Source: Clostridia bacterium
GTDB taxonomy: Bacteria; Bacillota; Clostridia; UMGS1810
NCBI GenBank assembly: GCA_045646385.1
Contig: JAZRKQ010000016.1
Location: 96,336 to 120,335 of the forward strand
Reading direction: 5' to 3'
DNA: 24,000 bases
Below, piece by piece: positions 3,654 to 22,249 of the stretch (position 1 is the stretch's first letter; every line of letters starts with the position of its first letter). The notes under the pieces were generated by a model. The model had not been told where the DNA came from and searched no databases. It saw nothing but the letters and a program-made list of their open reading frames with translations. The translations under genes and the position numbers were made by a program.

Positions 3654-3670
3654 ATTTAACGTAGTCTTTT

Positions 3671-3754
3671 GGAGAGGTGTCCGAGTGGTTTAAGGAGCTA
3701 GTCTTGAAAACTAGTGATGCGAAAGCACCCAGAGTTCGAATCTCTGCCTCTCCG
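3671..3754 (+). tRNA. tRNA-Ser (anticodon UGA)
   Basis: Acceptor GGAGAGG/CCTCTCC with discriminator G. Anticodon stem CTAGT/ACTAG with loop CTTGAAA. Long variable arm. T arm CAGAG-TTCGAAT-CTCTG. No encoded CCA. Confidence 0.9.
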
Positions 3755-3804
3755 TTTTTTTATATCTAAATGACTGTTTCATCTCATCATGGCAGTCTGA
3801 GTAT

Positions 3805-3892
3805 GGAGAAGTACTCAAGTTGGTGAAGAGGTGCCCCTGCTAAGGGTATAGGTCGGGAAACCGGCGCGAGAGTTCAAATCTCTCCTTCTCCG
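3805..3892 (+). tRNA. tRNA-Ser (anticodon GCU)
   Basis: Acceptor GGAGAAG/CTTCTCC with discriminator G. Anticodon stem TGCCC/GGGTA with loop CTGCTAA. Long variable arm. T arm GAGAG-TTCAAAT-CTCTC. Confidence 0.9.
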
Positions 3893-3894
3893 TG

Positions 3895-4000: not shown

Positions 4001-4013
4001 TATGTAGAATAAA

Positions 4014-4280
4014 GGCTTTGACGGAGAGTACATATTCATTTGAACTTTAGAGAGAAGTGGCGGTTGGTGCGAGTCATAAGGGATGGAATATGTTTGTAGC
4101 TTCTGAGCCGGGAGGAAGAAAGCAATTTTGTTAGTAGAACCTTCCCGTGATTGCTGCGTTAATGCATATGGGTTGTTTGACCCTGAGAGTGGCGCATATT
4201 TTGCGCAATTTGAGTGGTACCGCGGGTGAATTACACTCGTCTCAAAGATTTTAACTATACTTTGAGGCGAGATTTTTTTT
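4014..4280 (+). promoter_or_regulatory. T-box riboswitch leader (tRNA-sensing transcription attenuator), probable GUA (Val) specifier
   Basis: Stem I: GA/K-turn motif, AGUA (4027-4030), AG bulge AGAGAGAA (4049-4056) and distal loop GGUUGGUGCGAG (4062-4073). Stem II spans 4110-4147 and contains AGUAGA. Stem III is GCGCA/UGCGC (4192-4206). The T-box motif AAUUUGAGUGGUACCGCG is at 4207-4224. A 12-bp terminator (4236-4247/4260-4271) plus U8 competes with an antiterminator. Confidence 0.85.
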
Positions 4281-4308
4281 GCCTCATGATAAAGGAGAAA
4301 TTTTTAAT

Positions 4309-6600
4309 ATGGAAAACTCAAGGGATATTAATCTCAAAATCAAGGAAATGGCTGAACGTATCCGTGAACTGCGTGAGATTGAGAACTATACCACGCAGGA
4401 AATGGCCGAAAAAACAGGTATTTCTGTTGAAGAGTACATAAAATGCGAAAATGGCGAATCAGACCTCAACTTTGCTTTTATTTATCGTTGTGCGGCTGCA
4501 TTAAGAGTAAACGTTACAGATATTATAGAAGGTTATAGCCCTAACCTTAAATCTTATACTGTTACACGTGCAGGTGCAGGGCAACAAATTGCCAAAGCAC
4601 ATGGTATGATTTATCATAACCTTGCTTATGCATTTAAGAATCGTATTGCTGAACCTCTTTTTGTTGTAAGCGCATATGATGAAGACGCGCAAAATAAAGA
4701 TATCGAACTTACAACACATTCAGGGCAGGAATGTGATATTGTTATTGAGGGACACCTTATGGTACAGATAGGCGAGCATAAGGAAGTGCTCGGCCCTGGC
4801 GACAGTATCTATTATAATAGCGACACTCCACACGGTATGATTGCTGTTAACGGAAAAGAATGTAAGTTTTATGCTATAGTTTTAAGAGCGGATGTAGATG
4901 GAGCAGATACACCTTCTGATGTTGTTTCTACTGAACAGATTATAGGTTCTATCCACAGAGATACAAAAGACAGAATCTACCATAACTTTATTGATGTGGT
5001 TGAAGATGATAAAGGCACACCGATTTCTATAGAATTTAAAAATACTGAAAAGTTCAACTTTGCATTTGACCTTGTTGACGAACTTTCAAGACGTGAGCCC
5101 GACAAACTTGCTATGCTTCATATCGGTAAAGACAAAACCGAAAGACGTTTTACTTTTACTGATATGAGAAAGGCTTCAAGTCAATGTGCTAATTATTTTG
5201 CTTCACTCGGAATTAAAAAGGGTGACAGAGTAATGCTTATTTTGAAACGCCATTATCAATTCTGGATAGCAATGCTCGGTTTAAATAAACTTGGTGCAAT
5301 TGCAATTCCTGCAGTTGACCAACTTCACGAACACGACCTTGAGTATAGATTTAATTCTGCGGGCGTAAGTGCTATTGTATGTACATCGGATGGAGAAGTT
5401 GCAAATTATGTTGATATTGCAGCAGAAAAATGTCCATCACTTATAAATAAAATGATTGTAGGAGGAAGTAAAGAGGGTTGGAGAAACTTTGACGAAGAGT
5501 ATAAGCGTTTTAGTTCGCACTTTGACCGTACTGAAGACTCTCCGTGTGGCGATGATACTATGCTTATGTATTTCACATCCGGTACATCAGGTTATCCAAA
5601 AATTGCTACGCACAATTATAAATATCCTTTAGGACATTTCCATACTGCTAAATATTGGCACAATGTTGATCCTGATGGTTTACATTTTACAATTTCAGAT
5701 ACCGGTTGGGCAAAGGCGATGTGGGGTAAACTTTATGGACAATGGCTTTGTGAGGCTGCAACATTTGTATATGACTTTGACCGTTTTGATGCATCTGAAA
5801 TATTACCAATGTTTGCAAAACACCATATTACAACTTTCTGTGCACCTCCAACAATGCTCCGTATGATGATTAAGCAAGATATTTCAAAATATGATTTTTC
5901 ATCTGTTCGTCATATGACAACGGCAGGCGAGGCTCTTAATCCGGAGGTTTATCGTCAGTTTGAAAAGGCAACTGGTCTTCAGATTAAAGAAGGTTTTGGA
6001 CAGACAGAGAGCACGATGATTATAGGTAATCTTGTTGGCAAACCTCATAAAATTGGTGCTATGGGTAAACCGGCACCTATATACAAGGTTGAACTTCATG
6101 ATTCTGATGGTAATCCTGTTAAAACAAGTGAGTCAGGTGAAATTGTTATCAATGTTAAAGACGGAGCACCTTGTGGTTTGTTTACCGGATATTATGGCGA
6201 TGAGGAAAAAACAAAAGAAGTATGGCACGATGGATATTACCATACCGGTGACGTTGCATGGTGCGATGAAGACGGATTCTATTGGTATGTAGGACGTATA
6301 GATGATGTTATTAAGTCTTCCGGATACCGCATTGGTCCTTTTGAAATTGAAAGTGTTATTATGGAATTACCATATGTACTTGAGTGCGGTGTTTCTGCCG
6401 TTCCTGATGAAGTAAGAGGTCAAATCGTTAAAGCTAGCATTGTTTTGGTAAACGGTACAGAGCCTACTGAGGAACTTAAAAAAGAGATACAGAATTATGT
6501 AAAAGATAAAACCGCGCCGTATAAATATCCAAGAATTGTTGAATTTAAAGACAGTTTACCAAAAACAGTAAGCGGAAAAATCCAAAGAAATAAACTTTAA
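4309..6600 (+). CDS. Fusion protein: XRE-family HTH, cupin domain and AMP-forming (ACSM/MACS-type) acyl-CoA synthetase
   Basis: ATG at 4309 follows AAGGAG. The ORF-track TTG at 4279 lies in the terminator U-tract and is rejected. In ORF-track numbering, the HTH covers about aa 22-80, the cupin about aa 115-203 (HSGQE...GPGDSIYYNSDTPHG) and the linker aa 204-232. Ligase motifs are FTSGTSGYPK, GFGQTES, YHTGD, GRIDDVIKSSGYRIGPFEIE and SGKIQR. Confidence 0.85.
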   Translation: MENSRDINLKIKEMAERIRELREIENYTTQEMAEKTGISVEEYIKCENGESDLNFAFIYRCAAALRVNVTDIIEGYSPNLKSYTVTRAGAGQQIAKAHGMIYHNLAYAFKNRIAEPLFVVSAYDEDAQNKDIELTTHSGQECDIVIEGHLMVQIGEHKEVLGPGDSIYYNSDTPHGMIAVNGKECKFYAIVLRADVDGADTPSDVVSTEQIIGSIHRDTKDRIYHNFIDVVEDDKGTPISIEFKNTEKFNFAFDLVDELSRREPDKLAMLHIGKDKTERRFTFTDMRKASSQCANYFASLGIKKGDRVMLILKRHYQFWIAMLGLNKLGAIAIPAVDQLHEHDLEYRFNSAGVSAIVCTSDGEVANYVDIAAEKCPSLINKMIVGGSKEGWRNFDEEYKRFSSHFDRTEDSPCGDDTMLMYFTSGTSGYPKIATHNYKYPLGHFHTAKYWHNVDPDGLHFTISDTGWAKAMWGKLYGQWLCEAATFVYDFDRFDASEILPMFAKHHITTFCAPPTMLRMMIKQDISKYDFSSVRHMTTAGEALNPEVYRQFEKATGLQIKEGFGQTESTMIIGNLVGKPHKIGAMGKPAPIYKVELHDSDGNPVKTSESGEIVINVKDGAPCGLFTGYYGDEEKTKEVWHDGYYHTGDVAWCDEDGFYWYVGRIDDVIKSSGYRIGPFEIESVIMELPYVLECGVSAVPDEVRGQIVKASIVLVNGTEPTEELKKEIQNYVKDKTAPYKYPRIVEFKDSLPKTVSGKIQRNKL

Positions 6601-10463: not shown

Positions 10464-10492
10464 TTGACAAAACGATATGTATATGATATCAT
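10464..10492 (+). promoter_or_regulatory. Sigma-A promoter (extended -10) upstream of the small ORF and the long operon
   Basis: TTGACA (10464-10469), a 17-nt spacer, then TATCAT (10487-10492) with TG at 10484-10485. Confidence 0.6.
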
Positions 10493-10522
10493 AAATGTAT
10501 ATTTTTGAAAGGGGATGTACGT

Positions 10523-10804
10523 ATGTCGAATTTTGTTAAACATTTTGCTAATATGTTTACCAAAGATGCGTCTGTAAGTGCGTGTTCCTCTTGTGGTGCA
10601 GTTAATACTGCTACCAATTTTAATTTTATTAAATTTGCAGACACTGTTTTTTCAGTGTCTGTTTTGTTATGTTCTTTAATTTCCATTATTGGTTTTGCTT
10701 TGCTTGGTCTAATTTATGTGATTATACTGGCAAACATTATAATTATTAACATTATATGTCTGAAAAAAATATTCTATAAAAAGCGAAACATTATTAAATT
10801 CTAA
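10523..10804 (+). CDS. Hypothetical small membrane protein (93 aa)
   Basis: ATG at 10523 follows GAAAGGGGA. The N-terminal half is soluble and carries a CSSCG motif. The C-terminal half is hydrophobic and very Ile-rich. No family was recognised. Confidence 0.45.
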   Translation: MSNFVKHFANMFTKDASVSACSSCGAVNTATNFNFIKFADTVFSVSVLLCSLISIIGFALLGLIYVIILANIIIINIICLKKIFYKKRNIIKF

Positions 10805-10833
10805 TTTTTCGATATAAACAATCCAAGTTTAAG

Positions 10834-10868
10834 ACGGTTTTGCTTTTTATAGGCGGAGCCGTTTTTTA
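10834..10868 (+). terminator. Rho-independent terminator/attenuator-like hairpin directly upstream of the operon
   Basis: ACGGTTTTGC (10834-10843) pairs with GCGGAGCCGT (10853-10862). The stem is 10 bp including 3 G-U pairs, the loop is 9 nt, and a T6 run follows. It ends 29 nt before the next start codon. Confidence 0.55.
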
Positions 10869-10896
10869 ATAAAAGAGGAAAAGAGGAGAAAATTGT

Positions 10897-12312
10897 ATGA
10901 CAGAAATCAAAATTGCCGACATTACTTTAAGAGAAAAATCTTTTTGTGAGGTTGATGCTCTAAGTTTTAAAGAAAAAACAGAGATTGCCAAACAACTGGA
11001 TAATCTAAAAGTTGATATAATTGAAACAGCGCCAATCACAAGTGGCAAAAAAGATATTCTGTTCTTACACACAATTTCTTCAATTGTAAAAAACAGTATA
11101 ATTTCTTGCCCGACAGGTCTTTCTGAGGAATCTGTTTTAGAGGCTTATGATGCTATTAAAAATTCTGTTAAGTCAAGACTTAATATTATTGTTCCTGTTT
11201 CAACTGTGCAAATGGAATATATATGCCACAAAAAGCCTGATAAAGTTCTTGATATGATTGCAAATCTTACCAAATACGCAAGTTCGCTTTGTAAAGATGT
11301 TGAAGTGTCATTGGCAGACAGCACCAGAGCTGAAAGTGAATTTTTATATAAAGCGATTTCTGCTGCTATAGGAAATGGAGCAAAGGTCATTACCTTGTGT
11401 GATTCTGCCGGAATTATGATGCCGTCTGAATTTGAACAGTACATAAATACTATTTATGATAATGTTCCTGAACTTAAAGAAGTGGCTCTTTCAGTTGAGT
11501 GCTCAAACGAAATGAACATGGCTACCGCATGTGCTATTGCCTGCATTAATGCCGGTGCTACACAAATAAAGGTTGCCACAGGCTCAAATTCATGCCCATC
11601 ACTTAAATCTACTGCTAATGTATTCAGAATTAAATCTGATGTTTTAAAAATTTCTACTTTAATGAATATGACGGTTCTGGATAAAGCGGTTGCCCGTATT
11701 TCTTCTATTGCTGATGGCAATATTGGTAATGCAACTGTGTATAATACTGAAGAACATAAAAACTATTTTGAAGATACAAAATTCAGTGCTGATGACGATA
11801 TTAAAACTATTGAAAAAGCGCTTGTAACTATGGGATATGAATTACCTGCAGAAGAACTTAAAAATGTATATGACGAGTTTTCAAAAATCGCTGTAAAAAA
11901 ATCTGTTGGTATTAAAGAACTTGACGCAATTGTTGCAAGTACTGCTATGCAAGTTGCACCTACATATAAAGTTAAAAGTTATGTTATTAACAGCGGTAAC
12001 ATTTTAACGCCTACTGCTAATATAGAACTTACTAAAAGTGGTGATGTACTTCACGGTTTTTCTATAGGTGATGGCCCGATTGATGCTGCGTTTATGGCTA
12101 TAGAGCAGATTACAGGTCACCATTACGAACTTGATGATTTCCAGATACAATCTGTAACTCGCGGACGAGAGGCAATGGCAGAGAGTATTGTAAAACTCAG
12201 AAATGATGGTAGACTTTATTCCGGAAAAGGCACGTCTACAGATATTGTAGGCGCAAGCATTAATGCCTATATCAACGCATTGAATAAAATTTGCTTTGAG
12301 GAGGAGATATAA
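10897..12312 (+). CDS. LeuA/2-isopropylmalate-synthase-like protein with degenerate catalytic motifs and an intact LeuA_dimer regulatory domain
   Basis: The HMGL-like TIM-barrel N-terminal half aligns with LeuA (EKTEIAKQLDNLKVDIIE). The N-terminal DTTLRDGEQ motif reads DITLREKSF, and the HxH metal motif reads ECSNE (nt 11497-11511). The C-terminal GDGPIDAAFMAIE...DIVGASINAYINALNK is well conserved. Confidence 0.8.
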   Translation: MTEIKIADITLREKSFCEVDALSFKEKTEIAKQLDNLKVDIIETAPITSGKKDILFLHTISSIVKNSIISCPTGLSEESVLEAYDAIKNSVKSRLNIIVPVSTVQMEYICHKKPDKVLDMIANLTKYASSLCKDVEVSLADSTRAESEFLYKAISAAIGNGAKVITLCDSAGIMMPSEFEQYINTIYDNVPELKEVALSVECSNEMNMATACAIACINAGATQIKVATGSNSCPSLKSTANVFRIKSDVLKISTLMNMTVLDKAVARISSIADGNIGNATVYNTEEHKNYFEDTKFSADDDIKTIEKALVTMGYELPAEELKNVYDEFSKIAVKKSVGIKELDAIVASTAMQVAPTYKVKSYVINSGNILTPTANIELTKSGDVLHGFSIGDGPIDAAFMAIEQITGHHYELDDFQIQSVTRGREAMAESIVKLRNDGRLYSGKGTSTDIVGASINAYINALNKICFEEEI

Positions 12313-14768
12313 TGAATTTATCTTTTTCTACCAATAAATGGACAGATTTTAAAATTAGTGATTTCATTAAAATTGCTGCTGAATACAAATTTAACGGTAT
12401 AGAAATTCATGATGTTAATGAAATCAACGAGGAAAGTCTTTCCGATACTTATCACTCGCTTATTGAACATGGTATAAAAATACCGTGTATAGATATGGTG
12501 AACGATGTTTCAATTGATTCTTCAGAACTTTATAATGAATTTGAAAGGTTAAAAGAAGTAGTTGCTAAACTGCGAATCCCTTATATAAGATTGAAATCAA
12601 GCGGAGATGCAGCGGAATTTATAAAAAAAGTTTTGCCTTATGCAAAAGAAAATGGAATTACTTTGCTTGTTGAAACAGTGGGGGAATATGCAGATACTTC
12701 AAAACTCCGTACTTTGCTTGAAAGTTTTGCAGACGATAACCTTGCTGCATTGTGGGATTTTCATTATCCTTACCGTGTTAACGGCGAAGCGCCTGAAGAC
12801 ACTATCAGAAATCTTGGGGCATATGTTAAGCATATCCATATAAAAGACTCTGAAAGTTTAGCAGAGCATAGCCTGATAGGCGAGGGCAGTCTTCCTGTTG
12901 ATGAATTTATTAATGCATTAAGAAGTATAAATTTTAACGGATTTGTTTCGATAGAATGGAATCCTGACTGGGTATCAGAGGTTGATGATATAGACATTAT
13001 TTTCCCGCACTTTGTAAGTTTTATGTCAAGATATAAAGATCCTTCAAGAGCGAAAAAAGTTCTTTATGACAATAAAACAAAAACAGGCAAGTTTGTATGG
13101 AAAAAAGATGCATTGGTTGAAAAGACATTTTCACAAGTCCTTGATACTATGGCGGAGCAGTTTCCTGACCAGTACGCAATAAAATACACAACGCTTGATT
13201 ATACAAGAACATATTCGCAATTTCGTGATGATGTTGATAACTTTGCTAAAAGTTTGCTTGCTTTGGGTGTAAAAAAAGGAAGTCACGTTGCTGTTTGGGC
13301 AACAAATGTTCCTCAATGGTATATTGCATTCTGGGCAACAACAAAAATTGGTGCTGTTTTAGTTACAGTAAATACCGCGTATAAAATCCATGAAGCAGAG
13401 TATCTACTCAGACAGTCAGACACACACACACTGATTTTGATTGAAGGATACAGAGATTCAAATTACTCACAGATTATTGCAGAACTCTGTCCTGAACTTG
13501 AAACTAAAGAAGCAGATGCGCCATTACATGCTAAGAGATTACCTTTCCTTAGAAATGTAATTACCGTCGGATATAAGCAAAAGGGTTGCCTTACATGGGA
13601 AGCTGCACTTTCCAAAGGTGAAAAAGTACATATTGATGAAGTTAAGCGTGCTGCCGCCGCTGTTGATGTTCATGATGTATGTAATATGCAGTATACATCA
13701 GGTACTACAGGTTTTCCAAAGGGTGTAATGCTTACACATTATAATATTGTAAATGATGGTAAATGTATTGGCGATAGAATGGACCTTTCAACTGCCGACC
13801 GAATGATGATTCAAGTTCCTATGTTACATTGCTTCGGAATGGTGTTGGCGATGACGGCTTCTATGACGCATGGCGCTACAATTTTCCCGTTGCCATACTT
13901 TACTCCAAAGCCTGCGTTAGCTTGTATAAATCAGGAACATATTACAGCGTTTCACGGTGTTCCTACAATGTTTATTGCAATGCTTGAACATCCTGATTTT
14001 GAAAAAACCGATTTCAGTCATATGAGAACTGGTATTATGGCTGGCTCTCCTTGTCCTGAGCCTGTTATGAATCAGGTTATAGAGCAGATGAATATGCGTG
14101 AAATTACAATTGTGTATGGTCAGACAGAGGCTTCACCCGGTTGTACAATGAGTTCTACTGATGATTCTGTTGAAGTTCGTGTTTCTACTGTAGGCAGAGC
14201 GCTTCCTGAAATCGAATGCCGAATTGTAGATCCTGAAACAAACGAGGAACTTCCTGATAATACTATCGGCGAATTTGTTGCCAGAGGATATAATATTATG
14301 AAAGGGTATTACAAAATGCCCGAAGCAACGGCTGCTGCTATTGATAGTGACGGTTGGCTACATACAGGTGATTTGGCCCTCAAAACTCCCGAAGGAAACT
14401 ATCGAATTACAGGCCGTTTAAAAGATATGATTATTCGCGGAGGAGAAAATATTTATCCTAAAGAAATTGAAGAATTTATTTACACGCATCCCAAAGTTAG
14501 CGATGTTCAGGTAATTGGTGTTCCTGATGAACAGTATGGCGAGGAAATTATGGCTTGTATTATTCCTAAAGAGGGAGAGACCATTACCATTGATGAAATG
14601 AAAGAATATATTCTTTCACATATGGCTAAGCACAAAGTGCCTAAATACATTGATTTTGTTGATGCTTTCCCGACAAATGCTGCGGGAAAAATCCTCAAAT
14701 ATAAAATGCGTGAAGATGCTGTCGAAAGACTTAAAATTAAAAAAGTTGACGGCATTGTAGCAGAATAA
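12312..14768 (+). CDS. Fusion protein: xylose-isomerase-like TIM barrel (sugar-phosphate isomerase/epimerase family) and AMP-forming acyl-CoA ligase (FadD/ACSF2-like)
   Basis: The ATG overlaps the upstream stop (TAATG). Aa 1-240 resemble the AP_endonuc_2/XylA-like TIM barrel (LLVETVG, HIHIKD, VSIEWN). Aa ~266-818 carry the ligase motifs YTSGTTGFPKG, YGQTEASP, WLHTGD, GRLKDMIIRGGENIYPKEIE and AGKILK. Confidence 0.85.
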   Translation: MNLSFSTNKWTDFKISDFIKIAAEYKFNGIEIHDVNEINEESLSDTYHSLIEHGIKIPCIDMVNDVSIDSSELYNEFERLKEVVAKLRIPYIRLKSSGDAAEFIKKVLPYAKENGITLLVETVGEYADTSKLRTLLESFADDNLAALWDFHYPYRVNGEAPEDTIRNLGAYVKHIHIKDSESLAEHSLIGEGSLPVDEFINALRSINFNGFVSIEWNPDWVSEVDDIDIIFPHFVSFMSRYKDPSRAKKVLYDNKTKTGKFVWKKDALVEKTFSQVLDTMAEQFPDQYAIKYTTLDYTRTYSQFRDDVDNFAKSLLALGVKKGSHVAVWATNVPQWYIAFWATTKIGAVLVTVNTAYKIHEAEYLLRQSDTHTLILIEGYRDSNYSQIIAELCPELETKEADAPLHAKRLPFLRNVITVGYKQKGCLTWEAALSKGEKVHIDEVKRAAAAVDVHDVCNMQYTSGTTGFPKGVMLTHYNIVNDGKCIGDRMDLSTADRMMIQVPMLHCFGMVLAMTASMTHGATIFPLPYFTPKPALACINQEHITAFHGVPTMFIAMLEHPDFEKTDFSHMRTGIMAGSPCPEPVMNQVIEQMNMREITIVYGQTEASPGCTMSSTDDSVEVRVSTVGRALPEIECRIVDPETNEELPDNTIGEFVARGYNIMKGYYKMPEATAAAIDSDGWLHTGDLALKTPEGNYRITGRLKDMIIRGGENIYPKEIEEFIYTHPKVSDVQVIGVPDEQYGEEIMACIIPKEGETITIDEMKEYILSHMAKHKVPKYIDFVDAFPTNAAGKILKYKMREDAVERLKIKKVDGIVAE

Positions 14769-14780
14769 GGAGATATAAAA

Positions 14781-15839
14781 ATGGATATTAAAATTACAAA
14801 AACAACTGCATCAAAAGCAATTCCTACAGAAAATTTGGGATTTGGCAAAAGTTTTACTGACCATATGTTTATTGCTGATTACTCAAGAGATAAAGGTTGG
14901 TATAATGCCAGAATCGTTCCGTTTGCAAATTTGAGTATGCATCCTGCGGCAACCGTTTTTCATTACGGTGCTGAAATTTTCGAAGGATTAAAGGCATACA
15001 GAAGAGCAGATGGTAAAGTTCAACTTTTCAGACCTATTGAAAATGTAAGAAGAATGAACAATTCTGCTGAACGTTTAAGACTTCCTCAAATGCCGGAAGA
15101 AGATATGCTTCAGGCAATTATGGAACTTGTTAAAGTTGAAGAAGCATGGGTGCCTCATAACGAGGGTGAATCTCTTTACATTCGTCCATTCCTTTTTGGT
15201 AATGACGAACATTTAGGCGTTCATTCAATCGTGAACGCAACATTTGTAATCATTTGCTCACCAAGCGGAAGTTATTATGCTGAAGGTATAAATCCCGTTA
15301 AAATTATGATTGAAGAAGACGATGTAAGGGCTGTTCGTGGCGGTACTGGATTTGCTAAATGCGGTGGTAACTATGCTGCGGCTAACCGTGCCGGTGAAAA
15401 AGCAGAGCAGTTAGGCTATACACAGGTTCTTTGGCTCGATGGTGTTGAAAGAAAGTACATAGAAGAAGTAGGCGCTATGAATGTAATGTTTAAAATTGAT
15501 GGTGAAATTGTAACTCCCGCACTTACTGGTTCAATTCTTCCGGGTATAACGAGAAAATCATGTATCGAAGTATTAAAGAACGAGGGATATACAGTTTCTG
15601 AAAGACTTCTCTCTATTGATGAACTGACAGATGCAATGGAAAATGGCAAGTTAGAAGAGGCTTGGGGTTGCGGAACCGCTGCTGTTGTATCACCTATTGG
15701 ACAGTTGTTCTATAAAGGTAAAACTTATACTATCAACAATAACGAAATTGGTACTGTTACTCAGAATCTTTATAATAAACTTACCGGTATTCAGTGGGGT
15801 AAAGTTGAGGATACATTCGGATGGACAGTAGAGATTTAA
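14781..15839 (+). CDS. ilvE: Branched-chain amino acid aminotransferase
   Basis: 352 aa. Class IV BCAT hallmarks: FGKSFTDHMF, HYGAEIFEGLKAYR, FRP.ENV.RMN.SA.RL.LP and the PLP lysine context GTGFAKCGGNYAA. An AAGGAG RBS is present. Confidence 0.9.
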   Translation: MDIKITKTTASKAIPTENLGFGKSFTDHMFIADYSRDKGWYNARIVPFANLSMHPAATVFHYGAEIFEGLKAYRRADGKVQLFRPIENVRRMNNSAERLRLPQMPEEDMLQAIMELVKVEEAWVPHNEGESLYIRPFLFGNDEHLGVHSIVNATFVIICSPSGSYYAEGINPVKIMIEEDDVRAVRGGTGFAKCGGNYAAANRAGEKAEQLGYTQVLWLDGVERKYIEEVGAMNVMFKIDGEIVTPALTGSILPGITRKSCIEVLKNEGYTVSERLLSIDELTDAMENGKLEEAWGCGTAAVVSPIGQLFYKGKTYTINNNEIGTVTQNLYNKLTGIQWGKVEDTFGWTVEI

Positions 15840-16514: not shown

Positions 16515-16718
16515 ATGGCTAAAGTTACTTTTGACGAAAGCATTTGCAAAGGCTGCGGACTTTGCGTAGGTGCTTGTCCCAAAAAAATTGTTGCTTTGAA
16601 AGATGAACTGAATGCCAAAGGATATCATCCTGCCGGCGTTACCGATATGGAAAGTTGCATTGGTTGTGCGTTCTGCGCTACAATGTGTCCCGATTGTGTA
16701 ATTACAGTTGAAAAATAA
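16515..16718 (+). CDS. 2-oxoacid:ferredoxin oxidoreductase delta subunit (2x[4Fe-4S] ferredoxin)
   Basis: 67 aa with two CxxCxxCxxxCP motifs (CKGCGLCVGACP, CIGCAFCATMCP). AAGGAGG RBS. It lies immediately upstream of the alpha/beta/gamma subunits. Confidence 0.85.
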   Translation: MAKVTFDESICKGCGLCVGACPKKIVALKDELNAKGYHPAGVTDMESCIGCAFCATMCPDCVITVEK

Positions 16719-16731
16719 GGAGGAGAGAATT

Positions 16732-17802
16732 TTGAGCGAAAAAGTATTGATGAAAGGCAATGAAGCAATGGCAGAAGCCGCTATCATGGCCGGATGTAAA
16801 CATTATTTCGGATACCCCATTACTCCTCAGACAGAGGTTGCTGCATACATGGCAAAAAGACTTCCTAAAGTAGATGGTGGTGTATTCTTACAGGCAGAGA
16901 GCGAAATTGCTGCAATTAATATGGTAATTGGTGTTGCCGCTACAGGAAAAAGAGTTATGACCTCTTCTTCAAGTCCAGGTATTTCTTTAAAGAGTGAAGG
17001 TATTTCTTACCTTGCTGGTTGCGACTTACCTGCACTTATTGTAAACGTACAGCGTGGTGGTCCCGGTCTTGGCGGTATTCAGCCTTCACAGTCTGATTAT
17101 TTTCAGGCTACCAAGGGTGGGGGACACGGTGATTTTCATTTAATCGTTGTTGCACCTTCTTCTGTTCAGGAAATGGTTGATTTAACATCTAAATGTTTTG
17201 ATTTGGCAGATAAATACAGAATGCCTGCAATGATTCTTGCAGACGGCACTATGGGTCAGATGATGGAACCTGTTTCTTTAGAAGCAGCAGATGTTAAATC
17301 CGTTGATAAACCTTGGGCACTTACAGGTACTAAATGTGAACGTGAGCCAAATATTGTTAACTCACTTTTCTTAAAGCCTGATGAATTGGAGCAGTTTAAC
17401 ATTGAAAGATTCAAACGCTACAAAGAGATTGAAGCAAACGAAGTTATGTATGAAGAATATATGATGGATGATGCTGAAATTTGTATTGTTGCTTTTGGTG
17501 TTGCAGCAAGAGTATCTCAGAATGCTATTGATGAAGCACGCAAAAAAGGTATTAAAGTTGGTATGATAAGACCTATTACATTGTGGCCTTTCCCGAAAGA
17601 TGTTCTTAATAAGGCGGCAGATAAAGTAAAAGCATTTATTTCTGTTGAACTTAATATGGGACAGATGCTTGAAGATATTGAACTTGCTACACGCTGCAAA
17701 AAACCTGTACTTCTTTGCAGCAGAACAGGCGGTATGATTCACACAACTGAAAACATTCTTGATTCTATAGAAGAAGCACAGAAAATCGGAGGTGATAAAT
17801 AA
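16732..17802 (+). CDS. 2-oxoacid:ferredoxin oxidoreductase alpha subunit
   Basis: The N-terminus KGNEAMAEAAIMAGCKHYFGYPITPQTE is typical of Kor/Vor/Por alpha subunits. TTG at 16732, 6 nt after AAGGAGGAG, is preferred over the ORF-track start at 16708. ATG at 16750 is an alternative. Confidence 0.85.
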   Translation: MSEKVLMKGNEAMAEAAIMAGCKHYFGYPITPQTEVAAYMAKRLPKVDGGVFLQAESEIAAINMVIGVAATGKRVMTSSSSPGISLKSEGISYLAGCDLPALIVNVQRGGPGLGGIQPSQSDYFQATKGGGHGDFHLIVVAPSSVQEMVDLTSKCFDLADKYRMPAMILADGTMGQMMEPVSLEAADVKSVDKPWALTGTKCEREPNIVNSLFLKPDELEQFNIERFKRYKEIEANEVMYEEYMMDDAEICIVAFGVAARVSQNAIDEARKKGIKVGMIRPITLWPFPKDVLNKAADKVKAFISVELNMGQMLEDIELATRCKKPVLLCSRTGGMIHTTENILDSIEEAQKIGGDK

Positions 17803-18554
17803 TGGTAGTATTTGAAAAACCTAAAGCACTTACAGAAAACACTTTGCATTATTGTCCCGGTTGTACACATGGTATTATTCATCGTTTAGTTGCAGAAGCA
17901 ATTGATGAATTAGGTATTAGAGGAAGAACAATCGGTGTTGCATCTGTTGGATGCTCAGTATTTACATATAATTACTTTAATGTTGATATGGTTCAGGCAG
18001 CACACGGCAGAGCGCCTGCTGTTGCTACCGGTGTTAAACGCTCAGATAGTAATAACATTGTATTTACATATCAGGGCGATGGCGATTTGGCTGCTATTGG
18101 CACTGCTGAAACAGTTCACTCTGCTGCAAGAGGCGAAAATATTACCGTTATTTTTGTAAATAATGCAATTTACGGTATGACTGGCGGTCAGATGGCTCCG
18201 ACAACTCTGCCCGGACAGGTAACACAGACTTCGCCGTACGGAAGAGATGTCGACAAAGTTGGTTACCCCATTAAAGTTTGTGAAATGCTTTCTAAGGTTG
18301 ACGGTGCTACTTATCTTGAAAGAGTTGCTGTCAATAATGTTAAAAATATTAAAAAAGCAAAAGAAGCAATTAAAAAGGCTTTCCAGAATCAGATTGAAGG
18401 CAAAGGATTTTCTTTAGTAGAAGTACTTTCTACTTGTCCTACAAACTGGGGTAAAACTCCTGAAGATTCTCTTAAATGGCTTGAAAGCGAAATGATGCCT
18501 TACTATCCATTGGGAGTTTACAAGGACAAATACGCAGACGGGGAGGCAAAATAA
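17802..18554 (+). CDS. 2-oxoacid:ferredoxin oxidoreductase beta subunit (TPP-binding)
   Basis: YCPGCTHG cysteine motif and GDGD...NN TPP-binding region. The start overlaps the alpha-subunit stop (TAATG). Confidence 0.9.
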   Translation: MVVFEKPKALTENTLHYCPGCTHGIIHRLVAEAIDELGIRGRTIGVASVGCSVFTYNYFNVDMVQAAHGRAPAVATGVKRSDSNNIVFTYQGDGDLAAIGTAETVHSAARGENITVIFVNNAIYGMTGGQMAPTTLPGQVTQTSPYGRDVDKVGYPIKVCEMLSKVDGATYLERVAVNNVKNIKKAKEAIKKAFQNQIEGKGFSLVEVLSTCPTNWGKTPEDSLKWLESEMMPYYPLGVYKDKYADGEAK

Positions 18555-19084
18555 TGAGTAAACAGATGTTAATTGCCGGATTTGGCGGACAGGGAGTTCT
18601 TTTCGCAGGAAAATTTATTGCTTATGCAGGACTCATTGAAGAAAAAGAAGTTAGTTGGTTGCCATCTTACGGTCCGGAAATGCGTGGAGGTACCGCAAAC
18701 TGCAGCGTAATTTTGAGCGATACCAAAGTAGGTTCCCCAATCGTTGATAAACCTGATATTTTAGTTGCTTTAAACGCACCGTCACTTGATAAATATGAAA
18801 ATGATGTTGTTTCAGGAGGTCATATTTTTGTTGATAGTTCTCTCATTGACAGAAAGGTTAACCGTACTGATGTAAATGTGCACTATATTCCTGCATCTAA
18901 AATGGCGTCGGACGAAAATTTAAGTGGCCTTGCAAATATGATTATGATGGGACATATGATTAAACATAGCGATGTAATTGAATATGATAGCATTGAAAAA
19001 TCTATGGCCAAAGTAGTTTCTGCAAAAAAACAAAATCTTTTTGATGCTAATAAAAAGGCTGTGGAACTGGGATATAACTATTAA
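18554..19084 (+). CDS. 2-oxoacid:ferredoxin oxidoreductase gamma subunit
   Basis: N-terminal [10 protein letters not shown] motif and SYGPEMRGG, typical of gamma subunits. The start overlaps the beta-subunit stop (TAATG). Confidence 0.9.
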
Positions 19085-19098
19085 GGAGGGGACGCCTT

Positions 19099-19650
19099 GT
19101 GAATAACCAGATTAAAGATATCGGTATGCGTCTGGCTTTTTTGCGCGAAGATATGGAACTTACTACTGCACAAATGGCAGAGAAATTAGATGTTGATGAG
19201 GCAACATATATTTCTTATGAAAAAGGCGAGATGGATTTTTCATTTAGTTTTATTTATAATGCTGCTGATCATCTTGGTGTTGATGTTCTGGATTTAATCA
19301 GCGGTGATGCTCCTACACTTTCTATGTGTACAATGGTTGAAAAAGGGAATGGATATTCAGTTAAAAGAGAGCATGAGTATGATTATAAGCATCTTGCTTA
19401 CACCTTCAGAAATAAAAAGGCTGAACCATTTCTTGTAACAATAACCCCTGACGAAAAACCGCCTGTTATGAAATGTCATGAAGGACAGGAATTTAACTAC
19501 GTGCTTTCCGGAAAGATGAAATTCTTTATAGGAGATATTTCATATGAACTTTCCAAAGGTGATAGCGTTTATTTTGATTCCGGAATACCTCACGCGGAAG
19601 TTGCCCTTGGTGATAAACAGGCTCAGTTTATCGCCGTAGTAATTAAATAA
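19099..19650 (+). CDS. XRE-family HTH transcriptional regulator with C-terminal cupin domain
   Basis: 183 aa. It aligns over its whole length with aa ~20-203 of the fusion at 4309-6600 (MAEK...FIY.A...L.V.V.D.I; KHLAY.F.N..AEPF; GDSVYFDSGIPH). GTG start lies 7 nt after AAGGAGGGG. Confidence 0.85.
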   Translation: MNNQIKDIGMRLAFLREDMELTTAQMAEKLDVDEATYISYEKGEMDFSFSFIYNAADHLGVDVLDLISGDAPTLSMCTMVEKGNGYSVKREHEYDYKHLAYTFRNKKAEPFLVTITPDEKPPVMKCHEGQEFNYVLSGKMKFFIGDISYELSKGDSVYFDSGIPHAEVALGDKQAQFIAVVIK

Positions 19651-19665: not shown

Positions 19666-21363
19666 TTGAAAATGGCAATATATGAAAAATTTGTTGGCGC
19701 ATCAAGAGATGATTTTATCTCTCTTGAAGACGCACAACGAAATTATAACCTTACATATGAAGAAGATTTTAACTTTGCATATGATGTCATTGATGAACTT
19801 GGTACTACCAAGCCCGACAAATTGGCATTATTGTATTTATCTTCTTCAGGTGAAGAAAAACGCTTTACATTCCGTGATATGATGCTTATGTCTAATAAGG
19901 CTGCGAATTATTTTAAGTATATGGGAATCAAAAAAGGCGATAGAGTTTTGCTGGTTATGAAGCGTAGTTATTATTTCTGGATTTGTGTTTTAGCACTTCA
20001 CAAAATTGGTGCTATTATGATTCAAGCAACAAATATGCTTAAGGCTAAGGATTATGTTTATCGTTGTAATGCTGCCAAAATCAATGCTGTAATTTTAACC
20101 GGCGATGGTATGGAAACTGAATATTTTGATGAGGGCGGTGACCAATACGAGACCGTTACAAAAAAATTTGTATTAGGTCATAAAAAGGCAGGACATGATT
20201 GGATAGATTTTGAAACGGGCTTTGAAATGGCAAGTGATCAATGGGAAAAGCCCCGCGGTAAAGATAAACCTATGGCTGACGATACTATGCTTATGGCCTT
20301 TTCATCTGGTACTACCGGTTATCCCAAAATTATTTCTCATAACTTCAAATATCCATTAGGGCATATTATGACTGGTGTATTTTGGCATAGAGTTGTAGAT
20401 GGTGGTTTGCATTTTACAATTTCTGATACCGGATGGCTTAAATCTCTTTGGGGTAAATTCTACGGTCAATGGTTTGGTGAATCTGCAATTTTGGTATATG
20501 ATTTTGAAAAGTTTGATGGTGCTGATATACTTTCTAAACTTGAAAAATATAAAGTTACTACTTTCTGTGTTCCGCCTACCATGTATCGCATGATGTTGCA
20601 AAACGATGTTAGTAAATATGATTTATCATCACTTACTCATTGCTGTTCTGCAGGTGAAGCATTAAACCCTGAGATCTTCAATAAGTGGCTCGATGCTACA
20701 GGTTTAAAAATTTATGAGGGTTTTGGACAGACAGAAACCGCTGTTTGTATTGCTACTATTGAACCTTGGACAGAACCTATCCCCGGTACAATGGGATTCC
20801 CCGTTCCCGGTTTTGATGTTCATATTCTCGATGAAAATAACAAATTCGTACAACGTGGTACAACCGGCGAAATATGCATACGTGTACTTAGCGCAAAACG
20901 TAAATCGTGTGGCCTTTTAGACAGTTACAACTTAAATAGCGAGGAAACAAAAAAGGCCATGTACGGTGGATTTTATCATACCGGTGATACTGCTTACCGT
21001 GATGAAAAAGGAATGTTTAGATATGTGGGTAGAAATGACGATGTAATTAAGTCATCTGGTTACCGCATTGGTCCTTTTGAGATTGAAAGTGTTATGTTGG
21101 AACATCCTGCAGTTATGGAAGTTGCAGTCACTGGTGTTCCTGATCCGGTTCGTGGGTTTGCAGTTAAGGCAACGGTGGTTCTTAGCGATGATTATGAGGG
21201 CAGTGATGAACTTACCAAGGAACTTCAATCATACGTTAAAACTAATACTGCTCCCTATAAATATCCAAGAATTGTGGAATATGTTAAAGAACTTCCAAAA
21301 ACTTTTAATGGCAAAATCCGCAGAGCAGAAATCCGTAATAAAGATAATGAACCCAAATTATAA
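19666..21363 (+). CDS. AMP-forming (ACSM/MACS-type) acyl-CoA synthetase
   Basis: Motifs FSSGTTGYPK, GFGQTET, YHTGD, GRNDDVIKSSGYRIGPFEIE and NGKIRR. It is a paralog of the ligase part of 4309-6600, with roughly half the residues identical by eye. The start is TTG at 19666 or ATG at 19672, after GGAGG. Confidence 0.9.
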   Translation: MKMAIYEKFVGASRDDFISLEDAQRNYNLTYEEDFNFAYDVIDELGTTKPDKLALLYLSSSGEEKRFTFRDMMLMSNKAANYFKYMGIKKGDRVLLVMKRSYYFWICVLALHKIGAIMIQATNMLKAKDYVYRCNAAKINAVILTGDGMETEYFDEGGDQYETVTKKFVLGHKKAGHDWIDFETGFEMASDQWEKPRGKDKPMADDTMLMAFSSGTTGYPKIISHNFKYPLGHIMTGVFWHRVVDGGLHFTISDTGWLKSLWGKFYGQWFGESAILVYDFEKFDGADILSKLEKYKVTTFCVPPTMYRMMLQNDVSKYDLSSLTHCCSAGEALNPEIFNKWLDATGLKIYEGFGQTETAVCIATIEPWTEPIPGTMGFPVPGFDVHILDENNKFVQRGTTGEICIRVLSAKRKSCGLLDSYNLNSEETKKAMYGGFYHTGDTAYRDEKGMFRYVGRNDDVIKSSGYRIGPFEIESVMLEHPAVMEVAVTGVPDPVRGFAVKATVVLSDDYEGSDELTKELQSYVKTNTAPYKYPRIVEYVKELPKTFNGKIRRAEIRNKDNEPKL

Positions 21364-21382: not shown

Positions 21383-22249
21383 ATGACAGATGTAAAAATA
21401 ACTGATGTGCGTGTTCATCCCGGTGATAGCGGTTTCTTAGTTGATGATGGCGAAACATCAATACTATATGATTCAGGTTTTGCTTTTACCGGAAGCGGAA
21501 TGGTTAATAAAATCAAAGAACAACTTGGAAACAGAAAATTAGATTACATATTCCTTACACATTCTCATTACGATCATGTGCTTGGCGCTCTTTATGCAAT
21601 GAGGCAATGGCCTGATGCAAAAGTAATTGCAGGTGAATATGCTGCAAAGATTTTTTGCAAACCATCTGCAAAATCTGTTATGCGTAAACTTGACCAAAAG
21701 TTTGCAACTACCTGTGGAGCAGAACCGTATGAAGATATAATTGACGAACTCAGAGTTGACATTACCGTCAACGATGGTGATATTATAAATGCCGGAAAAA
21801 TGACATATAAAGTTGTTGATTTACCGGGACACACTAAATGTTCTGTTGGTTTTTATCTTGTTGGGAAAAAACTTTTACTAAGTACCGAAACTCTCGGTAT
21901 ATATGCCGGAAACGAAATTATATTGCCATCATTTTTAGTGGGTTATGAGATGACACTTAACTCTATTAAAAAAGTGGAAAATATGGATGTTGAGAATATT
22001 TTGGTGCCGCATTACGGTTTGCTAGACAGAGAACACACAAAAGTGTTTTTGAAAAAAGCAAAAGAAGTTGCACATATAACTGCAGAAGATTTTTCTGCAA
22101 GGATAAAAAAAGGGCAGACAGATGAGGAATTAATAGAATATTTCAAATCATTATATTATCACGATTACATTAGGGTTATTTACCCTATAGATGCTATTGA
22201 ACTTAATACAAGTTGTATGATTAACTTAATAAAACGAGAGTGTTTATAA
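21383..22249 (+). CDS. MBL-fold metallo-hydrolase
   Basis: 288 aa with the canonical HSHYDH (HxHxDH) zinc motif, followed by GHT and a later His. GAAGGTG RBS. It is the last gene before the terminator. Confidence 0.85.
   Translation: MTDVKITDVRVHPGDSGFLVDDGETSILYDSGFAFTGSGMVNKIKEQLGNRKLDYIFLTHSHYDHVLGALYAMRQWPDAKVIAGEYAAKIFCKPSAKSVMRKLDQKFATTCGAEPYEDIIDELRVDITVNDGDIINAGKMTYKVVDLPGHTKCSVGFYLVGKKLLLSTETLGIYAGNEIILPSFLVGYEMTLNSIKKVENMDVENILVPHYGLLDREHTKVFLKKAKEVAHITAEDFSARIKKGQTDEELIEYFKSLYYHDYIRVIYPIDAIELNTSCMINLIKRECL

Follow-up and report, generated by a model that had tools for sequence, protein, structure and literature searches.

The subject of this work is a protein of 471 amino acids, called here the LeuA-like protein, that is related to 2-isopropylmalate synthase (IPMS, or LeuA) and has lost the catalytic apparatus of that enzyme. 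It is encoded in a 24,000-nucleotide stretch of DNA (the window) from a Clostridia bacterium of the GTDB lineage UMGS1810 (assembly GCA_045646385.1, contig JAZRKQ010000016.1, positions 96,336 to 120,335 of the forward strand). We are close to certain that the protein is not a synthase. The loss of the catalytic apparatus, the purifying selection acting on the gene, its obligate pairing and coupling with a downstream gene for a fusion of a TIM barrel and an acyl-CoA ligase, and the control of this unit by leucine T-boxes in related genomes are all well supported. Our proposal for its function, to which we give an even chance of being right, is that it is a non-catalytic IPMS paralog that acts as a leucine-responsive subunit of the ligase that serves the leucine branch of a salvage pathway. 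In this proposal we infer that the protein binds leucine, that it forms a physical complex with the fusion, that the ligase is inhibited as a result and that isovalerate is the substrate.

An earlier note, made from the sequence alone, had taken the gene for a LeuA homolog with degenerate active-site motifs. The homology is borne out by Pfam, which finds an HMGL-like domain (PF00682, residues 4-226, E 3e-38) and a LeuA_dimer domain, and by the predicted fold. The AlphaFold2 model, built from 71 homologs, has a predicted local distance difference test score (pLDDT) of 86, with disorder confined to residues 275-292 (pLDDT below 50). In Foldseek comparisons its barrel superposes on the IPMS catalytic domains 3rmj and 3eeg with a root-mean-square deviation (rmsd) of 1.7 A over about 277 residues, and the full chain matches M. 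tuberculosis LeuA. With a fold that matches IPMS barrels this closely, these findings are not due to chance. Among NCBIfam models the best score, 300 bits, is for an IPMS equivalog whose cutoff is 532, and the nearest curated families are all bacterial IPMS; the models for CimA, NifV and homocitrate synthase (HCS) reach just 57-109 bits against cutoffs of 413-950.

The catalytic motifs were compared by aligning the protein to IPMS sequences of solved structure in the PDB (HMMER) and to E. coli LeuA (MAFFT). The DTTLRDGEQ motif, which carries the substrate arginine and a metal-ligand aspartate, reads DITLREKSF. This substitution had been spotted in the earlier note, but was placed one codon too far downstream (10921-10947, for 10918-10944). 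The replacement of the HxH motif by ECSNEMN was found exactly where it had been reported, at 11497-11517, and the TGSNSCPS sequence that had been read as a changed GERAGN-like loop turns out to mark a four-residue deletion relative to E. coli LeuA. Two further losses extend that list. The catalytic glutamate is gone, the SCED of LeuA being SLAD here, and so is the histidine motif of subdomain I, from which approximately 20 residues, including AFAHSSGIHQDG, have been deleted. At the metal-ligand positions the protein has E13, E201 and S203. The substrate arginine of the LRD motif is kept (R12), yet this position varies across the family.

The extent of this variation was measured in 106 full-length representatives of the family that share 50% identity or less. 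At position 12, the substrate arginine, R is found in 35 representatives, K in 26, C in 17, A in 6 and Q in 5. At position 13, the metal-ligand aspartate, the commonest residues are E (19), Q (13), N (11), K (10) and D (9), and at position 140, the catalytic glutamate, they are E (25), L (23), I (13) and V (10). The first histidine of the HxH motif (position 201) is replaced by E in 24, Q in 14, S in 11, C in 10 and R in 9, and the second (position 203) by S in 59, A in 8, N in 8 and also by R. Since these positions drift, there is no selection for metal-dependent Claisen chemistry. The possibility that the metal ligands are merely shifted, which the earlier note had named as grounds for withdrawing its view, is ruled out by both alignment methods and by these counts; the ligands are lost. 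The claim that the protein is not a synthase is thus strongly supported, by changes at the catalytic positions here and across the family in a protein that is maintained by selection. As it lacks the defining catalytic features of IPMS, it should not carry a synthase annotation.

The barrel is far from unconstrained. Framework residues of IPMS (D8, T10, S102, E136, D141, R144 and D169) are kept across the same 106 representatives, and three further residues are near-invariant in this family specifically, E107 (105/106), K113 (106/106) and P114. The AlphaFold2 model places these three in a short helix and loop after strand 4 (beta4-alpha4), on the predicted catalytic face. The ratio of nonsynonymous to synonymous substitution rates (dN/dS), estimated against two orthologs that are 93% and 87% identical (L090 and L089), is about 0.07 overall. 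The linker has the highest values in the protein (0.11-0.18), the barrel comes next (0.077) and the regulatory domain is lowest (0.014-0.027). The protein is under strong purifying selection and is not decaying.

The family is also widespread. Proteins that share 53-93% identity with the window's protein form more than 120 clusters at the 90% level, approximately 120 clusters at 50% identity extend down to 32%, and relatives are encoded in at least 580 species-level genomes. Almost all of these are metagenome-assembled genomes of gut and rumen Clostridia, from the Acutalibacteraceae, Oscillospiraceae, Ruminococcaceae and others. Sequences with an intact HxH and GERxGN (497-516 amino acids) do not surface in the representative search until scores have dropped below those of the family, to about 220 bits. 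P0243 (497 amino acids) and P0249 (516 amino acids), the nearest in which DTTLRDG, HCH and GERxGN are all intact, also lack the HxxGIHxDG of subdomain I; they may represent stages in the evolution from IPMS to the dead family, or else another group of atypical IPMS.

The regulatory domain at the C-terminus is, to judge from its sequence, an intact and highly constrained domain of the IPMS type, and by dN/dS it is the most constrained part of the protein, more so than the barrel. It scores 109 bits on PF08502 (cutoff 24.9). Scored alone, it reaches 125 bits on an IPMS model and 20 bits on that of CimA. The two motifs that had been described as intact, GDGPIDAAFMAIE and DIVGASINAYINALNK, are indeed present and fall in invariant columns of the family; across 71 sequences G391, G393, G445, S447 and D449 do not vary. 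In the predicted model, strands at 358-390 are followed by a helix at 394-406, and strands at 411-447 by a helix at 450-468, so placed that G391, G393, S447 and D449 would sit at the N-termini of the two helices. A passage of PMC11057210 describes the carboxylate of leucine in M. tuberculosis IPMS as held between two helix N-termini.

About ten database proteins join the last 175 or so residues of the family, at 60% identity, to partial domains of unrelated kinds (MFS, MBOAT, TGT, response regulator, Laminin_G_3 and 7TMR-HDED). These include P0239, P0244, P0248, P0254, P0255, P0257, P0264 and a gene at 644-1750 of L091. The one case that was traced lies on a lone contig of 3.4 kb, where the next gene begins at -4 nt and is cut off by the end of the contig. 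These proteins are probably assembly chimeras, the less likely alternative being a real replacement of the N-terminus, and we have set them aside as evidence.

The partner of the LeuA-like protein is an 818-residue protein that joins an AP_endonuc_2 TIM barrel to an acyl-CoA ligase. In a tblastn survey of 84 related loci, the fusion gene directly follows the LeuA-like one wherever a locus has enough downstream DNA, and a reverse check from three ligase homologs found the LeuA-like gene upstream in all three. The overlap of stop and start codons (TAATG) that had been reported for the window is confirmed at 12310-12314. It is typical of the family: the two genes are spaced at -4 nt in 35 loci, -1 in 4 and 0 to +3 in 20, which places 59 of 70 loci between -4 and +3 nt, and a junction of this kind fits translational coupling. 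This constant adjacency strongly supports the earlier suggestion that the protein works with the neighbouring ligase. Identity to the window's proteins across the loci is 70-90% for the ligase half, 45-67% for the LeuA-like protein and 34-79% for the TIM half.

The ligase half looks active, because the core motifs of the ANL superfamily are intact. The fused TIM domain has the fold of ketose 3-epimerases (template modelling score about 0.74), and searches by sequence and by fold give only generic similarity to ketose 3-epimerases and sugar isomerases at 15-20% identity. Its predicted metal ligands E-D-H-E are kept in approximately 90% of the sequences (E121 in 64/71, D149 in 67/71, H176 in 71/71 and E215 in 67/71), and the domain probably still binds metal. 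In 7 of the 71 fusion proteins a lysine replaces the first of these ligands, E121 (window 12312-13121 encodes this domain), so the barrel may be losing catalysis in one subclade.

What connects this unit to leucine? In 38 related loci a T-box core motif lies 64-221 nt upstream of the LeuA-like start, and all six of the leaders that were examined with cmscan match RF00230 above its gathering score. The cmscan alignments read the specifier codon as CUC or CUG just before the closing helix, and a parse anchored on their geometry gives a leucine codon in 34 of 35 leaders (CUC in 30, CUG in 4), the last being a mis-parse. A second class of T-box is found 4-7 kb downstream in these same loci, and at 4009-4247 in the window, with specifiers for isoleucine (AUC, 17) or valine (GUA/GUC, 6). 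Here the next open reading frame (ORF) encodes a fusion of a helix-turn-helix (HTH) and cupin domain to an MbcS-like ligase (about 755-795 amino acids) in 20 of the 22 cases checked, the window's own ORF at 4279-6600 among the 20. Up to three T-boxes can occur in tandem, with the leucine T-box ahead of the LeuA-like and TIM::ligase genes, and the isoleucine and valine T-boxes each ahead of an HTH-cupin::ligase (loci L036, L050, L054, L057, L059-L062, L064, L065, L069, L074, L077, L080, L084 and L085). This arrangement suggests that each branched-chain amino acid has one dedicated ligase under riboswitch control.

T-boxes switch genes on when the cognate tRNA is uncharged. Induction by uncharged tRNA-Leu therefore points to a role in the supply of leucine and not in its breakdown, and by the same logic the ligases of all three branches would serve amino-acid supply. 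We consider it very likely that the LeuA-like/TIM::ligase unit serves leucine supply. A catabolic operon, in which leucine would be converted to isovalerate with a gain of ATP by enzymes that can run either way (the aminotransferase, oxidoreductase and ligase), was considered and is unlikely, as the T-boxes respond to uncharged tRNA-Leu, tRNA-Ile and tRNA-Val.

The genes downstream of the fusion are consistent with this. A branched-chain amino acid aminotransferase (BCAT), a ParA/CbiA-like P-loop protein, a ferredoxin, the subunits of a 2-oxoisovalerate:ferredoxin oxidoreductase (VOR, VorBAC) and an XRE-HTH/cupin protein follow in the window, and are found in most related loci in two or three arrangements. 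Together, the ligase, VOR, ferredoxin and BCAT match the route by which branched-chain fatty acids are carboxylated to leucine, isoleucine and valine. According to the account in PMC7356843, labelling work on the rumen in the 1960s traced isovalerate, 2-methylbutyrate and isobutyrate to leucine, isoleucine and valine by carboxylation, and the leucine pathway has been known since Allison (1966). The window's two MbcS-like ligases score 421-440 bits. The MbcS of S. aureus activates 2-methylbutyrate and isobutyrate and makes poor use of isovalerate (PMC10026030), and because of this a separate ligase for the leucine branch makes sense. The neighbourhood of the LeuA-like gene holds no leuBCD genes.

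We can now set out the proposed mechanism. The LeuA-like protein would be co-translated with the TIM::ligase fusion and would probably bind it, with the barrel, whose family-specific invariants lie on the former catalytic face, as the likely docking surface. The fusion ligase would be the leucine-specific entry enzyme of the salvage route. Its substrate would be a branched-chain fatty acid, in the simplest case isovalerate, which it would activate to the CoA thioester. This thioester would then be carboxylated by VOR, with reduced ferredoxin as donor, to 4-methyl-2-oxopentanoate, which BCAT would transaminate to leucine. The regulatory domains would dimerise as they do in IPMS, leucine would bind at the dimer interface and its occupancy would lower the activity of the ligase. 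In effect, end-product feedback would have moved from LeuA, the classical first enzyme, to the first enzyme of an alternative route, adding a fast control on the ligase to the slower control by the T-box. The leucine T-boxes in relatives, the IPMS-type domain and the invariant helix N-termini give this sensing step indirect support. The view of the protein as a regulatory subunit, which the earlier note had put forward, is therefore supported in part: the protein is not a synthase and it belongs with the ligase, while the evidence for leucine sensing is of this indirect kind.

The features on which this account rests, and those of the neighbouring genes, are collected in Table 1.

Table 1. Features of the LeuA-like gene and of the surrounding operon, in window coordinates.
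Feature	Position	Strand	Basis or remark
T-box leader, specifier read GUA (Val), ahead of HTH-cupin::ligase gene	4009..4247	+	RF00230, 100 bits vs gathering score 93
HTH-cupin::MbcS-like acyl-CoA synthetase fusion, 773 aa, proposed Val-branch ligase	4279..6600	+	
Operon leader of the T-box-free clade	10464..10896	+	Promoter-like site, small ORF, terminator with alternative antiterminator
LeuA-like (IPMS-derived) non-catalytic protein, 471 aa	10897..12312	+	Intact ORF; Pfam; NCBIfam; AlphaFold2; Foldseek
Degenerate DRE-TIM barrel, residues 4-226	10906..11574	+	rmsd 1.7 A to 3rmj, 3eeg; dN/dS 0.077
DITLREKSF, replacing DTTLRDGEQ (substrate Arg and metal-ligand Asp motif)	10918..10944	+	Alignments
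ECSNEMN, replacing the HxH(D/N)D metal-binding motif (HTHDDLG in LeuA)	11497..11517	+	Alignments
TGSNSCPS, site of the deleted GxGERAGN loop (GIGERAGN)	11578..11601	+	4-residue gap vs E. coli LeuA; columns vary across family
Truncated subdomain I, residues 275-292, HxxGIHxDG catalytic His motif absent	11719..11772	+	Deletion vs E. coli LeuA; pLDDT below 50; dN/dS 0.11-0.18
LeuA_dimer allosteric domain, residues 340-465	11914..12291	+	Pfam PF08502, E 1.5e-31; dN/dS 0.014-0.027
GDGPIDAAFMAIE, residues 391-403, N-terminus of first regulatory helix, putative ligand-carboxylate site	12067..12105	+	G391, G393 invariant; helix from residue 394 in model
DIVGASINAYINALNK, residues 449-464, N-terminus of second regulatory helix	12241..12288	+	S447, D449 invariant; helix 450-468 in model
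TAATG stop/start overlap of LeuA-like and fusion genes	12310..12314	+	ORF calls
AP_endonuc_2 TIM barrel (ketose-3-epimerase-like; xylose-isomerase-like)::acyl-CoA ligase (AMP-binding), 818 aa	12312..14768	+	Pfam; NCBIfam PRK12583-like, 697 bits
Branched-chain amino acid aminotransferase BCAT (IlvE type II)	14781..15839	+	NF009897, 478 bits vs cutoff 307
ParA/CbiA-like P-loop protein, 226 aa	15821..16501	+	Pfam; always precedes ferredoxin-VorBAC
2x[4Fe-4S] ferredoxin (VorD-like), 67 aa	16515..16718	+	Pfam Fer4 families on orthologs
VOR (VorB 16708-17802, beta 17802-18554, gamma 18554-19084)	16708..19084	+	NF005507 VorB, 545 bits vs cutoff 399; beta/gamma subunit families
XRE-HTH/cupin protein	19099..19650	+	
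MbcS-like short branched-chain acyl-CoA synthetase	19666..21363	+	

Several observations weigh against our proposal. No T-box was found upstream of the LeuA-like gene of the window or its clade, either at the gathering score or at E values up to 1. A fusion of the LeuA-like protein to the ligase (LeuA-like::ligase or LeuA-like::TIM::ligase) is missing from the 120 ligase homologs listed. A gene for an Amidohydro_2 protein (PF04909, about 265 amino acids) flanks or lies within the leucine T-box unit in approximately 25 loci, for example at 15062-15859 in L002, 9205-9999 in L005, about 13950-14760 in L077, and in L086-L088; in L087 and L088 it alone completes the unit. A simple isovalerate route needs neither this protein nor the metal ligands that the fused TIM domain has kept. 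The best solved relative of the Amidohydro_2 protein is 3irs, an uncharacterised protein, and neither the window nor its closest relatives carry the gene. Both the probable metal binding by the TIM domain and the frequent Amidohydro_2 gene were missed by the earlier note, and they mean that extra chemistry is possible. The barrel itself is strongly constrained, with E107, K113 and P114 on what is predicted to be the catalytic face, where they could form a new active site instead of an interface. The allosteric signal of IPMS passes through subdomains I and II (PMC9860122), though in the LeuA-like protein subdomain I is truncated and the linker is the least conserved region. Lastly, LeuA_dimer also dimerises, and is required for catalysis in the IPMS of N. 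meningitidis according to work cited in a passage of PMC9860122; its conservation alone is therefore no proof of ligand sensing.

The foremost of the other explanations draws on several of these points. It holds that the LeuA-like protein is a neofunctionalised enzyme whose barrel, having given up metal-dependent Claisen chemistry, employs new residues for a different step, either as its catalyst or to bind its substrate. The protein, the ligase, the TIM domain with its metal site and the frequently linked Amidohydro_2 protein would jointly carry out an unrecognised salvage of leucine from a precursor other than plain isovalerate. The low dN/dS of the barrel (0.077) fits this, as does the near-invariance of E107, K113, P114, D141, R144 and D169, with E107 and K113 on the catalytic face, and as do the TIM ligands and the presence of Amidohydro_2 in the leucine T-box unit of some 25 loci, in two of which it alone completes the unit. 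Furthermore, the isoleucine and valine branches need a ligase only, so the extra proteins of the leucine branch call for an explanation. That said, the metal site, the general base and the substrate arginine are all unconserved, and D141, R144 and D169 belong to the inherited IPMS framework and are not novel. Amidohydro_2, being missing from the window and its closest relatives, is dispensable there, the set of domains fits no candidate reaction, and it is the allosteric domain and not the barrel that is most constrained. We regard a new enzyme as unlikely.

Somewhat less probable again is that the protein is a structural scaffold, which pairs two ligase fusions or links them with VOR and BCAT to allow channelling, senses no ligand and retains LeuA_dimer for dimerisation only. 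Obligate adjacency and translational coupling would be expected of such a protein, and LeuA_dimer is the dimerisation module of IPMS (as its Pfam name implies; PMC9860122). The ligase half is also unusually conserved, at 70-90% identity in loci where the LeuA-like protein has 45-67%, a pattern that many interaction surfaces would give. Set against this, the invariant residues cluster at two helix N-termini that correspond to the amino-acid site of IPMS, and not just on a dimer surface, and a dN/dS of 0.014-0.027 is extreme for a plain dimerisation module. A scaffold would also leave unexplained why an IPMS-specific domain is retained in an operon controlled by leucine.

Could the protein still be a genuine isopropylmalate, citramalate or homocitrate synthase, in which Glu13 and Glu201 stand in for the aspartate and histidine ligands? 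Homocitrate synthases have TLREGEQ, with a glutamate in place of the aspartate. The LeuA-like protein of the window keeps a similar pair, Arg12-Glu13 (LRE), has a glutamate at the first histidine position and has a well-formed IPMS barrel fold. However, positions 12, 13, 140, 201 and 203 vary freely across the family, and this drift rules out reading the Arg-Glu pair in the manner of homocitrate synthase. The GERAGN loop and the histidine motif of subdomain I are deleted, the score of 300 bits is well short of the IPMS cutoff and those for CimA, NifV and HCS are far lower, and leuBCD are absent from the neighbourhood. A working synthase is thus very improbable. A decaying pseudogene or annotation artefact, for which the loss of all catalytic motifs and the name 'hypothetical protein' given to relatives at NCBI might speak, can be dismissed as having next to no chance of being correct: it is refuted by the selection and conservation data, since the ORF is intact in hundreds of genomes, the dN/dS is about 0.07, the operon position and coupling are conserved and the fold is predicted with confidence.

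The wider operon offers several further observations. The leader of the window's own LeuA-like gene, which belongs to the clade that lacks a T-box, has a strong promoter-like site at 10464-10492 and a small conserved ORF at 10523-10804. This encodes about 93 amino acids with a SACSSCG motif and a C-terminus rich in isoleucine and leucine, and in the three relatives that keep the ORF intact the lengths of the alignment gaps are divisible by three. An intrinsic-terminator hairpin at 10831-10865 (-18.3 kcal/mol, z -4.3) lies approximately 25 nt before the LeuA-like ribosome-binding site. Pairing is also possible between the 5' arm of this terminator and the codons that end the small ORF (10773-10789), and this alternative is more stable at -24.2 kcal/mol. 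Ribosome-mediated attenuation may have taken the place of the T-box here, a suggestion we offer as a lead only. The small ORF also contains, at 10637-10662, a 9-bp inverted repeat without mismatches and, after it, a T-run (CAGACACTG...CAGTGTCTGTTTT). Four relatives have the same stem arms, although their synonymous sites are saturated elsewhere, and this suggests that an element acting at the RNA level is embedded in the coding sequence.

Upstream, two tRNA-Ser genes with UGA and GCU anticodons (3670-3755 and 3804-3893) lie between spoIVA and the valine T-box. The ORF behind that T-box, at 4279-6600, joins an XRE-type HTH, a cupin domain and a ligase in one chain, an unusual combination that recalls enzyme-regulators of the BirA type. 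Downstream, the ParA/CbiA-like gene overlaps the end of the BCAT gene by 19 nt and in related loci always stands directly ahead of the ferredoxin and VorBAC; its product may help to mature VOR or to deliver Fe-S clusters to it. A gene for an MBL-fold (metallo-beta-lactamase) hydrolase at 21383-22249 follows the MbcS-like ligase, and does so in L089 too, so that the operon seems to end with it.

Taken together with these neighbours, the proposed sensor forms part of a larger picture. A dead IPMS would give leucine feedback in trans to an adenylate-forming ligase. The LeuA-like/TIM::ligase unit, whether or not it includes Amidohydro_2, would combine with the HTH-cupin::ligases under isoleucine and valine T-boxes, VOR, the ferredoxin, the ParA-like protein and BCAT into a hitherto undefined module that produces all three branched-chain amino acids from the branched-chain fatty acids of the gut, each branch with its own riboswitch and its own protein-level sensor. 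We put this picture forward tentatively, with rather less than even confidence. A stronger version would have the TIM, Amidohydro_2 and LeuA-like barrels run a novel chemistry for the leucine branch. Literature searches returned no description of the LeuA-like family, of its pairing with a ligase or of branched-chain acyl-CoA ligases under T-box control, and no paper that assigns ligases, or the regulation of ligases, to the carboxylation of branched-chain acids in the rumen. The locus described here and more than 500 related genomes supply a candidate ligase for each amino acid, and the T-box specifier tells which is which. The first enzyme of a de novo pathway, once dead, has apparently been reused as the regulator of a salvage pathway. 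If true, this would be a clean natural case of an allosteric module reused across unrelated enzymes and a ready-made element for leucine recognition, and it would aid the prediction of how branched-chain amino acids and fatty acids are exchanged in gut and rumen communities.

How does the LeuA-like protein compare with known systems? By descent it is a member of the IPMS/LeuA lineage (NF002086/TIGR00973; PDB 3rmj and 3fig). It shares the domain order of DRE-TIM barrel, linker and LeuA_dimer, a barrel at 1.7 A, an IPMS-type regulatory domain and the framework residues D8, T10, S102, E136, D141, R144 and D169. It differs from IPMS in having no metal ligands, catalytic glutamate, GERAGN loop or subdomain-I histidine motif, in being approximately 45 residues shorter and below the family cutoffs, and in being encoded outside a leu operon and coupled to an acyl-CoA ligase.

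The nearest functional precedent is HisZ, also a dead paralog of an amino-acid-recognising enzyme that is kept as a regulatory subunit. HisZ is an inactive paralog of aminoacyl-tRNA synthetases that forms a separate regulatory subunit of the short-form HisG_S (ATP phosphoribosyltransferase), and through it the end product feeds back on the pathway's first enzyme. The LeuA-like protein likewise is an inactive paralog under purifying selection with an obligate genetic association to a catalytic partner. The two are not homologous, and the partnership and allostery have been demonstrated for HisZ, whereas for the LeuA-like protein they are proposed. A further difference is that the LeuA-like protein descends from the first enzyme of another route to its amino acid, the de novo one.

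The small subunit of acetohydroxyacid synthase, IlvH/IlvN, is a further parallel. It too is a regulatory chain in its own right, with a branched-chain amino acid as its ligand and a catalytic partner from the same pathway under its control; IlvH has been used as a valine-recognition element (PMC13381585). It has an ACT-domain fold and no enzyme ancestor, and it works with a thiamine-diphosphate (ThDP) enzyme rather than an adenylate-forming ligase. CimA carries the same Pfam domain as the LeuA-like protein, and its LeuA_dimer domain works as a stand-alone isoleucine-recognition element (PMC13381585). The domain of the LeuA-like protein fits the IPMS model far better than that of CimA, and its genetic context is that of leucine, not isoleucine. 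Finally, the methylbutyryl-CoA synthetase MbcS of S. aureus has in common with the proposed system the ATP-dependent activation of exogenous short branched acids. MbcS differs in that its product goes into fatty-acid synthesis and that no sensor is fused to it or coupled with it. The leucine-branch ligase comes from another ANL subfamily (PRK12583-like), shares its chain with a TIM barrel and has the LeuA-like protein as its partner.

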